A stretch of DNA of 64,000 nt from Eledone cirrhosa (Eukaryota), in contig OZ024740.1 of assembly GCA_964016885.1 (NCBI GenBank), positions 148,180,001 to 148,244,000 on the forward strand, written 5' to 3'. A program made the position numbers and the translations under genes. Below, one piece after another: positions 13,582 to 25,454 of the stretch. The number at the start of each line of letters is the position of its first letter. Within the stretch, counting starts at the first letter, position 1. The notes under the pieces are model-generated. The model was not told the DNA's origin. It searched no databases and was given only the letters and a program-made list of their open reading frames with translations.

Positions 13582-13835
13582 ATTCTGTGACCTCTTCAGT
13601 GACTGGGGATTCTTTTCTTTGTTTTGTGCCTCTTCTTTGTTCTGTCCTACGCCATCTTATTTTTGCGTGTGTGTTGTGTGCAAACTAAGCACAAAAACAA
13701 GATGGCCTAGGACAGAACAAAGGAGAGGCAAAAAAAAAGAAAAGAATCCCCAGTCACTGAAGAGGTTACAGAATTTGTGACGAAAGAACTTTGACAATAT
13801 ATGAACAACCGTCCGGTTGTTCATATATTGTCAAA
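13582..13835. repeat. Imperfect ~80-bp inverted repeat (13582-13774) followed by a 22-bp-arm perfect hairpin (13790-13835)
   Basis: ATTCTGTGACCTCTTCAGTGACTGGGGATTC... / ...GAATCCCCAGTCACTGAAGAGGTTACAGAAT; TTTGACAATATATGAACAACCG-TC-CGGTTGTTCATATATTGTCAAA. Confidence 0.85.
13753..13795 (+). ncRNA. Minimal type I hammerhead ribozyme (family C)
   Basis: GTCA-CTGAAGA-G-GTTACA-GAATT-TGTGAC-GAAA-GAAC-TT-TGAC; 4-bp stem I, 6-bp stem II. Confidence 0.65.
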
Positions 13836-15315
13836 CCAACCAACCGGAAATTTATAAATTTTTAAATTTATAATTTAATTTATAATAAATTGGAGTGAAA
13901 GCAACTGGTGTGTGTGTTTCTTATTGGCAACATGACCCTCCCAAAGTATAACAATATCGGTTTCAACGCACGTTTCCAGATGAAGAATCTTGCTAAACAA
14001 ATTCAGAACAGGTAGGTACGAACTAGAACTTCTTTCTGATGTAGAGTCACCATTTTACATTTCTGCAAATATTTAATGAGAATGTATAACAAACAGTCAC
14101 CCTCGCTGACAAACTAACAATCGTGTTATTACACTTATAATCGGATCAATAACCGATTATAATAACCAAAACCAGTTTGTTCCAGCAAGCAGGGAGGTGC
14201 AGTTGTTAACCAAACATTCTGGCCCTCTCCACAAGGACCAGTTAGCTTTGTTTCCACTGGCACATAAACAAAGTCAGTCCAAACATAACTGTAAATATCA
14301 TCTTTTGAATTGTTGCATACATAACAACAACATTGCCTTGTTTTCGTAGTAGGTTATTAAATTAATAAATATATTTCAGTAGTGATTTAGTTTATATTTT
14401 ATTACCTATGTGATCAGGGTAAATCACTTACCCAAGAAATCACCACATCACCATCATCATAATGAACACTGTAACTCAATGTCACACCCGCAATCTCTGG
14501 CCACACACGAATAGGCACACCTATCTCCCTTCACTTTAACACTACGCAACGTGACCACATCACAAAGCAATGCACAAGTGAACAACGAACCACAATACCA
14601 ACTCTCCTCTTGCTACAATCCAAATAACCTTTCTATCTACAGATTTGCACCAGTTTACATGGACTTCAGATTTTACTGTTATTGCAGATTAGGTTTATGA
14701 TAATAGTATTTATCCTATCAAAATATTGTAGTTTAAATTTATATTTTTGGAATTTATTTTAACAATTCAGAAATAGTGAGATTAGAAATCAAAAGGTAGA
14801 GAAACGAAATTAAGTTGTTTAGTATACATCTTTGTTGCCTCTGGTGCCTCGCTATAGTGGTTTTATCTAATAGCAATTTTTAACAGTCACACATTTTGAA
14901 GGGCCGTGTTCAGTCAATTTTATCACACCTGGCACTTGACAAGTACTTTATTCTATTGACTTTGTTAGAATAAAAGAAAAGTTCAGTGGAATTTGAACGC
15001 ATAATATAATGGGACGAAACTGAATATCTCAAGGCATTTTCTCCGGTACTCTACTGATTTTCTTAATCCATTGTCCTTATATGGTTTCATCTAATAACCA
15101 TAACTCACTTCGTCTCACGATCACAAATTTGTAAACAAATACACGTGCTTGATTTATATGCATCCTTGTTATTGTCGTTTATCCCGAGGGTCAGAGATAT
15201 TTCAACCATTACTATTCTTTAATGTTTTTCAAGCATAGTGTATCTATGTTGTCCACTGTCTCTTTCCTTCTTTTAAGTAGATTGTATGGTGTGATAAAGA
15301 GGCAACATATATAGA

Positions 15316-15460
15316 AGACGGACGGGGCCCCGGGACGATGGAATCCCGGGGCCGCAATGTGCGTTCGAGGTGTCGATGTTCACTGAGTCCTGCAATTCGC
15401 ATCAGTTCACGCGGATAGCCGCGCTCTTCATCGACGGACGAGCCGAGTGTTCCCCGTCCA
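15316..15460 (-). rRNA. Isolated 5.8S rRNA copy (pseudogene)
   Basis: Minus strand CACTCGGCTCGTCCGTCGATGAAGAGCGCGGC...GAATTGCAGGAC...GAACATCGACACCTCGAACGCACATTGCGGCCCCGGG with the GC-rich 3' arm; no 18S, 28S or ITS context. Confidence 0.9.
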
Positions 15461-15463
15461 GGT

Positions 15464-15580
15464 GAAGGCGTGTGGCTGAATGGTTAGAGAATTGGATTCG
15501 CAAACGTGAGGTTGTGAGTTCGATTCCTGGACCAGGCTATGCGTTATGTCCTTGAGCAAGACACTTTATTTCACGTTACT
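15464..15580 (+). mobile_element. tRNA-derived SINE, second family (5' part)
   Basis: A box TGGCTGAATGG, B box GTTCGATTC, core GTCCTTGAGCAAGACACTTTATTTCACG; relatives at about 49590-49840 (-), 56302-56420 and 63665-63910. Confidence 0.75.
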
Positions 15581-16893: not shown

Positions 16894-17430
16894 GTATGGG
16901 TTTACCGAACATTTAGTATAATGTTCGGTTTGTTTGTAAACAAACAGCCCGAATTACGCCGTACAGTGCTCGGCAACCATCGTCGCCCTTTTGTTCAACC
17001 CTGTCACAGGAACGATGTACTAGTTTCAAGCTTATCGTCAGCATAGTTTACCTTTCTATCAGATGATTGAACGTTTGAAAGTATATACTTTCCTTATGCA
17101 TATTAACGGCTGAGCAGCCTAATTTGCATATCGAGTGAGTTAGTCGGCCGGGCGTACCGAAAACGATAAATGGAAAAGAATGAAACGAATTTTCATTTCT
17201 CACTCATACTACGGCTGATACCTAAATATAAGTATGTATACCTACATACATATATGTGTGTACAGACGTACAGTAGTAATATACATACATGCACACACAT
17301 ATATATATGTACGTATGGGTTTACCGAACATTTAACATAATGTTCGGTTTGTTTGTAAACAAGCAGCCCGAATTACGCCGTACAGTGCTCAGCAACCATC
17401 GTCGCCCTTTTGTTCAACACTAACACAGGA

Positions 17431-17473
17431 ACGATGTACTAGTTTCAAGCTTATTAGCTATCGTCAGCATCGT
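17431..17473 (-). ncRNA. Minimal type I hammerhead ribozyme (family A)
   Basis: Reverse complement of ACGATG-CTGACGA-TAGCTAATAAGCTT-GAAA-CTAG-TA-CATCGT; a copy with stem II deleted lies at 17012-17047. Confidence 0.75.
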
Positions 17474-17885
17474 ATAGCTTTCTGTCAGATGATTGAACGT
17501 TTGAAAGTATATACTTTCCTTATGCATATTAACGCCTGAGCAGCCTAATTTGCATATCAAGTGAGTTAGTCGACCGGGCGTACCGGACATTATAATATAT
17601 GTTCGGTAAACCCATACGTACATATATATATGTGTGAATGTATATATATATATACATACTACTGTACGTCTGTATACATATATGTATGTACGTATACATA
17701 CTTATATTTAGGTATCAGCCGTACTAAGAGTAAGAAATGAAATTTCGTTTCATTCTTTTCCATTTATCGTTTTCGGTACGCCCGGCCGACTAACTCACTC
17801 GAGATGCAAATTAGGCTGCTCAGGCGTTAATATGCATAAGGAAAGTATATACTTTCAAACGTTTAATCATCTGACAGAAAGGTAT

Positions 17886-17928
17886 ACGATGCTGACGATA
17901 GCTAATAAGCTTGAAACTAGTACATCGT
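17886..17928 (+). ncRNA. Minimal type I hammerhead ribozyme (family A)
   Basis: ACGATG-CTGACGA-T-AGCT-AATA-AGCT-T-GAAA-CTAG-TA-CATCGT; predicted cleavage after GTA (17922). Confidence 0.75.
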
Positions 17929-18236
17929 TCCTGTGTCAGTGTTGAACAAAAGGGCGACGATGGTTGCCGAGCACTGTACGGCGTAATTCGGGCTGTTTGT
18001 TTACAAACAAACCGAACATTATACTAAATGTTCGGTAAACCCATACGTACATATATATATATATATGTGTGCATGTATGTATATATATACGTACTACTGT
18101 ATGTCTGTATCATATATGTATGTAGGTATACATACTTACATTTAAGTATCAGCCGTACTAACATTGAAAAATGAAATTTCGTTTCATTCTTTTCCATATA
18201 TATATATATATATATAATATATATATATGGAAAAAA

Positions 18237-18703
18237 TTTGCTGAGATCAAAGTGAGTGAATTTGTCACTACTTTAAAACAATAGCTTACGGTCTTCAAAA
18301 TGCTTTTAATTAAGCATAAAGTGTATTGCAAAATACATTATATATACATCCATATATATATTGCTATTTCAGAGCTCCAATTCTAATTTTTAATTTCTGC
18401 CTGACCAACAACCGCTCTGCATAATCAGCTCCTGATTATTTACTAGATTTCTATAAGAATATAACATCAATGATCTCAGTAAACAGGTGGGGTAGTTGGC
18501 CTTGATAAGCTTCAACCAAAGCGAAACAAGTCTTGTCGGCTTATCTCCCCTGTTTGCTGAGATCAAAGTGAGTGAATTTGTCACTACTTTAAAACAATAG
18601 CTTACGGTCTTCAAAATGCTTTTAATTAAGCATAAAGTGTATTGCAAAATACATTATATATACATCCATATATATATTGCTATTTCAGAGCTCCAATTCT
18701 AAT
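18237..18703 (+). mobile_element. Retrozyme-like element (family D): identical 151-bp direct repeats, 316-bp period, HHR between them
   Basis: 18237-18387 equals 18553-18703; (TA)n on both sides. Confidence 0.8.
18481..18555 (+). ncRNA. Type I hammerhead ribozyme with U3-A8 variant core
   Basis: GGCC-TTGATAA-GCTT-CAACCA-AAGC-GAAA-CAAGTCTTG-TC-GGCT, plus extended stem I AAACAGG/CCTGTTT; predicted cleavage after GTC (18537). Confidence 0.75.
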
Positions 18704-18724
18704 ATATATATATATATATATATG

Positions 18725-18834
<110 letters not shown>

Positions 18835-24533: not shown

Positions 24534-25454
24534 AGGGTTAGGGTGAGAGGTTAGGTGTTAGGTGTTATGTTTAGGGTTAGAATTTGGGTTAAGGTTTTGG
24601 GCTACTGTTAGGTTTAGGGTTAGTATTAGCGTTAAGACTATGGTTAAGGTTAGTTTGGTGTAAGCGTTAGGATTAGAGGTTTGGGTCAAGGTTAGGATTT
24701 AGTGTTTAGGTGTAGGGTTAGGTTCAGGGTTAGGGTTTAGGGTTTAGGTATAGGGTTAGCATTAAGATTAGGTTTGGAGTTAGGTTTAGTTTTATGGTTT
24801 GACTTACGATTTGGGGTTAGAATTAGGATTAGTATTATGGTTATGTTAATGTAAGGATTAGGGTTAGAGGTTAGGCTTAGGCTTAGAGGTTAAGGTTAGA
24901 GTTTAGGGTTAGGCTTAGCGTTAGGATCAGTGTTAAAGTTATTGTTAGGGTTAACGTTAGATATAGAGGGTTAAGATTAGTGTTACTGAGAAGTTTATGG
25001 TCAGGTTTAGGTTTAGGGTTTGGATGAGAGGGTTAGATTTATGGTTAGGGTTAGCGGCTTAGGTTTAGGGTTAGTGGTAGCCTTACAGGGTTAGGGATAG
25101 AATGACAGGGTTAGGGTTTGAGTTAGGGTTAGATTCAGTGTTAAATTTAAATTTACGGGTTAAGTATTATGGTTAAGGTTAGTGTTAGCGTGTTAGTTTT
25201 AGAGGTTAGGCTTAGTGTAAGGGTTAGAGGTTAGGATTAGAGTTTATGATTTAGGGTTACGGTTCGGTTTTGGTAAGGGTTAGGGGCTGGAGTGTTGTTT
25301 AAGTGTTAGTATTAATGTTAAGTTTAGTTTTAGAATTAGGTTTAGGGTGAGTGTTAGGCTTAGTGTTAGGGATAGGGTTGGTTTAGCATTAGTTTTATGG
25401 GTATGGTTAGGGTTAGAGTTATAATGTTTGGGTGAGGGTTTGATTTAGGTTTAG
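24534..25454 (+). repeat. Degenerate (TTAGGG)n telomere-like tract
   Basis: Continuous G/T-rich tract of TTAGGG, TTTAGGG, TTAGAGG and TTAGG variants. Confidence 0.85.

Follow-up and report, generated by a model that had tools for sequence, protein, structure and literature searches.

A putative non-LTR retrozyme of Eledone cirrhosa with a U3-A8 hammerhead and paired insertion ends resembling those of Penelope-like elements

Retrozymes, Penelope-like elements and the U3-A8 hammerhead

Animal non-LTR retrozymes consist of short tandem units, each with a type I hammerhead ribozyme; they are low in GC and non-coding, occur as monomers to multimers, and are found in genomes that also hold Penelope-like elements (PLEs), and the element described here shares all of these properties (PMC7229834; bioRxiv 10.64898/2026.07.22.740005). 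It also shares the weak palindromic stem III of the axolotl retrozyme. Cleavage that depends on dimers is known for such ribozymes (PMC7229834), and of nine retrozyme dimers from Xenopus only one showed cleavage in vitro (bioRxiv 10.64898/2026.07.22.740005). PLEs have been proposed as the mobilisers of retrozymes, on the grounds of shared ribozymes and co-occurrence (PMC7229834) and of similarity to PLE pLTRs in Xenopus (bioRxiv 10.64898/2026.07.22.740005); both reports call the mechanism of mobilisation still to be shown.

PLE insertions are 5' truncated and partly tandem, often with an adjacent inverted copy, and carry a tail of 30-40 bp at one end only (PMC8557442). The purified anole PLE protein, a predicted dimer, cuts both strands at AT-rich DNA, and its cDNA is begun inside the RNA, at two sites between which the tail lies; it inserts in vitro from uncleaved RNA, its own ribozyme not being needed (PMC11167929). 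With Neptune-type PLEs, and with the mechanism described for the Poseidon element PAc, our element has in common the 5' truncation, the partial tandems, the adjacent inverted copy, the one-ended tail, the AT-rich or (TA)n target and a hammerhead that stands 120-230 nt upstream of where the 3' ends fall (PMC8557442; PMC11167929). It differs from PLEs in having no ORF (the RT and GIY-YIG frame of autonomous PLEs is absent from the 316-bp element) and in consisting entirely of a tandem 316-bp unit.

The double change to U3-A8 at the 3-8 pair of the hammerhead core has been described as occurring naturally and as active in vitro (PMC3088659; PMC4209133), and about 1,300 U3-A8 matches have been reported in Schistosoma PLEs (PMC4209133). 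The ribozymes of the Schistosoma Cercyon PLEs carry the same change as ours. The Schistosoma motifs are heterogeneous and mostly single and minimal, whereas here a homogeneous tandem family has U3-A8 as its fixed variant, and the genome also contains closely related sister families with C3-G8.

The element has every sequence-level feature of the class and is very probably a non-LTR retrozyme. The features of plant-type LTR retrozymes (a type III hammerhead, two LTRs and a unique core) were not found in it; it has a type I hammerhead and head-to-tail units. It departs from the animal non-LTR retrozymes in combining a U3-A8 core with a full-size type I ribozyme and in targeting (TA)n. In Xenopus, 24 of 57 families match known repeats, nearly all of them PLEs (bioRxiv 10.64898/2026.07.22.740005), whereas here we found no homology to the pLTRs of the three PLE families searched. 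U3-A8 itself was already known; in the open-access literature we found no description, for any retrozyme, of a footprint of fixed, paired 3' ends and head-to-head arms.

The window copy, its ribozyme and its family

We analysed a stretch of 64,000 nt (the window) in which the following features were placed. Unit positions are counted on a reference unit taken from 18237-18552, with the 5' truncation of the window copy at unit position 1.

18196..18236, no strand: (TA)n and short 5' junction
18237..18703, plus strand: retrozyme insertion, a single arm of 1.48 units with a long 3' end (unit position 151)
18237..18387, plus strand: 151-bp repeat, copy 1
18352..18361, plus strand: AU tract (unit positions 116-125), where other copies have their "short" 3' end
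18394..18418, plus strand: block just 3' of the long site, kept across sister families
18476..18560, plus strand: type I hammerhead fold; stem I is extended and has an internal loop and a distal helix of 16 bp
18502..18508, plus strand: catalytic core strand UUGAUAA (U3 at 18502, A8 at 18507)
18509..18522, plus strand: stem-loop II (pairs 18509-18512/18519-18522, two-sided changes in all four)
18526..18536, plus strand: stem III, a self-complementary 11-nt near-palindrome and predicted dimer interface
18553..18703, plus strand: 151-bp repeat, copy 2, terminating at the long 3' site
18702..18790, no strand: (TA)n target at the 3' junction

The direct repeats with a 316-bp period that the sequence-only reading had described are indeed identical across exactly 151 bp (18237-18387 and 18553-18703); a second repeat comparison gave a 156-nt pair at 99% identity. 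That this duplication might be an assembly artefact can be set aside, because the 316-bp unit recurs at many loci on many contigs and a contig of run X1 spans the unit junction, and the earlier claim of a recent retro-insertion was likewise supported. (TA)n lies on both sides of the copy. The 5' junction at 18196-18236 is ambiguous and can be read as flank sequence copied by fold-back or as a short inverted arm of 13 nt. The AU tract of 18352-18361 recurs at 18668-18677, and the block at 18394-18418 is a candidate RT-binding element.

The unit has a GC content of 0.342 (34%), below 50%, and its period lies within the range of about 150-450 bp typical of retrozymes. The longest frame in the element, of 85 aa, is antisense and has a TTG start. 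A tblastn comparison of four PLE proteins with 128 retrozyme loci gave no match on the elements themselves, only fragments in their flanks. With one ribozyme only, the window copy cannot itself excise a monomer; genome-wide there are many dimers and multimers with at least two ribozymes, which should be able to release one. Elsewhere in the window we noted a repeat of about 430 bp at 17000-18200, in direct and inverted copies 90-95% alike, with the retrozyme at the end of the last copy; an isolated, diverged 5.8S rRNA copy at 15313-15466 on the minus strand (Rfam, 93 bits); and a degenerate TTAGGG-type array at 24534-25421, in the contig interior.

The hammerhead was located and structured as first described, with stems I to III, a GUC cleavage triplet and the UUGAUAA core. 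Stem I is formed by 18498-18501/18538-18541 and its 16-bp distal helix by 18476-18492/18545-18560; stem III pairs 18526-18529 with 18533-18536 around a 3-nt loop, GAAA stands at 18523-18526, and the predicted cut falls after 18537 (unit position 301). The segment 18475-18560 has a folding z of -5.33, with none of 200 shuffles equally good. An Rfam search at the gathering threshold did not find the ribozyme: the match to Hammerhead_HH9 (18488-18558, 24.6 bits, E 0.00097) lies under the gathering score of 52. The sequence-only reading had taken U3-A8 to be a natural covariant, which the published work cited above had already established, and searches for CUGANGA undercount retrozymes.

To follow the structure across relatives, we compared 19 rows chosen to span the closer subfamilies and sister families. 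Across these, 96.1% of cells were paired and two-sided changes were seen in 10 of 28 pairs, including all four of stem II, with the reservation that kinship among the rows makes shuffles overstate significance. The 3-8 pair was U-A in 17 rows and C-G in two, and as to the direction of the 3-8 swap, a tree of the 19 rows (7 of 26 loci lacked the full stretch) goes no further than placing the distant C3-G8 family outside. Sister families diverge at 10-35% of positions yet retain the hammerhead fold. As judged from these alignments, the ribozyme is under structural constraint, and the C3-G8 and U3-A8 sister families amount to a natural rescue experiment for the 3-8 pair.

Folding predictions bear on how activity should be assayed. 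Stem III is near-palindromic in the common variants; in a monomer its predicted pairing probability is 0, with no hairpin in the window's variant, which is predicted to self-pair at -10.1 kcal/mol. The catalytic fold of the monomer is predicted to lie 6.2 kcal/mol above an inactive fold that pairs U3-U4-G5 with stem III, and in a dimer the active fold (-73.1) comes within 2.1 of the cofold optimum (-75.2), in a prediction made without tertiary contacts. Because the stem III palindrome is predicted to act as a dimer, a cleavage assay on the monomer 18481-18555 may be falsely negative, and because the monomer is predicted to misfold, dimers are needed for cleavage tests. We consider the ribozyme quite likely to be active. 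Two more minimal hammerhead-like motifs stand in the window, at 13752 (plus) and 51317 (minus), the former matching the ribozyme found in the pLTR of PLE family L129/L169; and at L198:1864-2482 a hammerhead-like motif is repeated at 460-bp spacing, possibly representing a different retrozyme or pLTR family.

In the 3.0-Gb genome the core pattern was matched 1,947 times and its reversed control twice. Among the first 100 core matches listed, 97 belonged to the window's 316-bp family, and another base stood at position 7 in 54 of the 1,947. Retention of U3-A8 across genomic copies, which had been put forward as a check on the variant core, was confirmed: a genome search with family flanks found about 1,890 U3-A8 motifs as against four without U3 (three G3-A8, one C3-A8) and one without A8 (U3-G8), and no C3-G8 within the 316-bp family. 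A DNA search gave at least 214 matches at 95-100% identity (40 of 730 candidates scored, among the 150 listed), many of them in 316-bp tandems. The window element is a copy of a young, dispersed, non-coding 316-bp repeat family.

A block that the window's family shares with its sister families was matched 19,205 times; most of the first 100 matches listed belong to a 310-311-bp family with a canonical core. This sister retrozyme (L210-L225, L093, L107) is homologous, has a stem III of 1-2 bp, and appears to be far more abundant and very young; its two-arm arrays comprise as many as 17 units that are almost identical. Runs X4-X6, whose labels name three other organisms, also contain near-identical pieces of 18237-18703: one example is a 284-nt piece at depth 4 that has 1 difference, another is pieces of 105-110 nt at a depth of about 70 that have 0 differences. 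Relatives, contamination and horizontal transfer could each account for these.

Insertion ends, arms and the RNA template

We mapped 70 insertions, 47 of them consecutive on contig C1 and 23 the best BLAST hits, with one duplicated pair counted twice. Of their 119 3' ends, 106 fell into two intervals, 52 at unit positions 118-127 (short) and 54 at 146-163 (long); together these intervals cover 28 of 316 positions and were picked after the first 30 loci had been seen. Outer 5' ends were otherwise scattered, with 1 of 21 inside the intervals, and by a strict test (TA)n adjoined 87 of the 119 3' ends as against 2 of the 21 5' ends. The sequence-only reading had suggested looking for permuted ends, and in this it was contradicted: 3' ends are fixed at two sites (about 125 and about 151), and only 5' ends vary. 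The 151-bp overlap therefore reflects a fixed priming site and not random entry into a circle.

Head-to-head two-arm insertions made up 49 of the 70. Both ends lay in the intervals in 39 of these, and all 39 paired one short with one long end; in the remaining 10 at least one end was outside. Either arm can exceed the other (the long-end arm was the longer one in 18 of 39), and junction pairs differed in all 39 two-arm loci listed. The same pairing was seen in the sister family with C3-G8: of its 21 loci, 15 were two-arm insertions in which both ends could be seen, and all 15 combined a short end with a long one. In the terminal short unit of that family the tract is usually replaced by pure TA, and the short end proper may be as much as 10 nt further upstream, giving a tail of 26-36 nt. 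Classic twin priming on one linear RNA is not favoured, long-arm 5' ends showing no clustering near 125.

The arms traverse the cleavage site, reaching 6.5 units in the 316-bp family and about 9.5 units in the sister family. A cleaved linear monomer was rejected as the template, given that no 3' end lies at 301/302, no 5' ends pile up there and arms exceed one unit; this holds unless the RT jumps between monomers. In 45 two-arm loci of 62, with artefact-prone columns masked, the difference between arms was 1.8%, compared with 3.0% in shuffled pairs (minimum 2.3%, 300 shuffles), and subfamily alleles were present in both arms 70 times and in one arm 9 times. By this allele sharing, both arms appear to be copied from the same or near-identical RNA.

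In the sister family there was no non-singleton polymorphism within any of 21 loci, even in arrays of up to 17 units plus part-units, and single-locus alleles were fixed in all 8, 10 and 12 units, as a monomeric circle predicts. The 310-311-bp family is the best material for a test of the circle. Rare alleles in the 316-bp family (1 fixed in all units, 160 singletons, 18 partly shared) hint at most weakly at a monomer bottleneck. The earlier claim that the element was copied from a 316-nt circular RNA stands in part: the template was not a cleaved linear monomer, since the arm crosses the cleavage site, and the circle itself is what we infer. A circular template is favoured because the arms cross the cleavage site and share template alleles, and we regard it as probable from these patterns.

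Candidate helper elements and alternative explanations

GIY-YIG elements are numerous in the genome (150 scored of 10,596 candidates). Three co-resident PLE families have an RT with a C-terminal GIY-YIG domain, a linker of CX4CXXC type, minimal hammerheads and ends in (TA)n; by their sequence features they are of Neptune type under the definition of PMC8557442. One of them is young and has a U3-A8 minimal hammerhead in both pLTRs (11,747 motif matches; loci include L170:3280-8460 on the minus strand, L171, L174, L177 and L178), with RT-endonuclease frames free of stops in 51 of 64 scored copies at 98-100% identity. Among 13 inverted pairs of this family, 9 were short plus long (7 by automatic calling and 2 by eye), 3 were unclear, and one was long plus long, possibly from more than one insertion. 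For the remaining two families there are 6,005 and 15,504 motif matches, and these families too are two-ended. The spacing between short and long ends, or tail, is about 64, 40 and 60 nt in the three PLE families, as against 26-36 nt in the retrozyme.

We searched for a pLTR homologous to the retrozyme with a profile of 14 natural units, in 44 loci and the window and then in 78 further PLE loci, and found none; this search covered three PLE families, a small part of the PLE diversity that 10,596 GIY-YIG candidates represent. The strong profile hits L231, L260 and L121 proved on reading to be retrozyme copies, and other strong hits were taken from their coordinates as nested retrozyme copies. 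At two loci (L231:1124-1710 and L049:1351-2080) retrozyme arms are fused to PLE ends with no TA tract between them, and at L231 the retrozyme arm directly meets an arm of the PLE family with the 40-nt tail, the two having 3 bases in common at the join. The L231 junction is suggestive of co-mobilisation; we did not count either fusion as evidence, since insertion beside a PLE followed by deletion also explains them.

The retrozyme's ends in (TA)n, short paired with long, match those of the co-resident PLE families; on this sequence footprint, mobilisation in trans by a PLE is likely, and we judge PLE-type mobilisation as such very probable. The ends of its insertions bear the footprint of the PLE reaction, strictly one short and one long, amid young and intact PLEs.

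Our preferred explanation, to which we assign a probability of roughly 70% on the sequence data, is that non-LTR retrozyme RNA, probably a circle, was copied into (TA)n by a PLE enzyme. Arrays with at least two ribozymes would be transcribed, and adjacent ribozymes, paired by way of their palindromic stem III, would cleave after unit position 301, yielding 316-nt monomers. A host ligase would circularise these, and a lone circle would stay in the inactive fold. A Neptune-type RT/GIY-YIG complex would then nick both strands of (TA)n, and cDNA would begin inside the RNA at two fixed sites, one for each nick, which lie 26-36 nt from each other. Each cDNA would run round the template for a variable length before the two were joined head to head, the outcome being an inverted array that has a short end on one side and a long end on the other; in the single-arm case, as in the window copy, the 5' end of the sole arm would be joined to the flank.

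A more specific version, in which one RNP primes both nicked (TA)n strands at two sites on one ribozyme-made circle and rolls round it in both target directions, we hold tentatively, at slightly less than an even chance. If true, this two-site reaction would explain both the movement of animal retrozymes and the inverted, single-tailed insertions of PLEs, and it would provide a 316-nt template for reconstituting the PLE reaction. A template of 316 nt, with both of its start sites mapped and (TA)n as its target, fits the published in vitro PLE assay, whether supplied as a circle or as a linear multimer.

The alternative closest to this explanation retains the PLE enzyme and replaces the circle: insertion would proceed from an uncleaved linear multimer of an existing array, with the ribozyme a dispensable feature inherited from a pLTR and circles mere by-products. 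Ribozyme mutants leave anole PLE insertion in vitro unaffected (PMC11167929), long source arrays are present, 18 rare alleles are common to only some units, and the monomer is predicted to be inactive in its fold. Yet a multimer would require a one-unit bottleneck or conversion to produce the sister-family alleles that are fixed over 8-12 units and in both arms, and source junctions are absent from the progeny, with 39 distinct junction pairs. Related animal retrozymes, moreover, accumulate as circles (PMC7229834), and compensatory change is seen in the stems and the 3-8 pair. We consider a multimer template unlikely, but a real rival.

Two further alternatives dispense with PLEs. A non-PLE retrotransposon that targets TA repeats, such as a LINE with a restriction-like endonuclease, would be expected to use the same sites as any TA-targeting element, and ORF fragments near TA tracts (L061, L068) resemble what we take to be restriction-like endonuclease domains. 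LINE-type priming, however, begins at the RNA's 3' end, and in classic twin priming one arm stops at the start of the other, whereas here the junctions are scattered; the two fixed internal ends and their strict short-plus-long pairing match the co-resident PLEs, and we regard a mobiliser of this kind as very improbable. That the family is a satellite with a decaying ribozyme, dispersed as DNA by recombination between (TA)n tracts, is scarcely plausible: recombination would not be expected to give ends that are strand-polar, with the 3' ones fixed and the 5' ones scattered, nor inversions arising de novo, nor covariation, and as an account of dispersal this is contradicted. It may nonetheless apply to the growth of the largest arrays. 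Two large unit arrays (G000:C1:293.635-293.643 Mb and C3:114.92-114.95 Mb) have a higher-order periodicity of about 6 units, a sign of local DNA duplication, which suggests later satellite-like local amplification at these two places.
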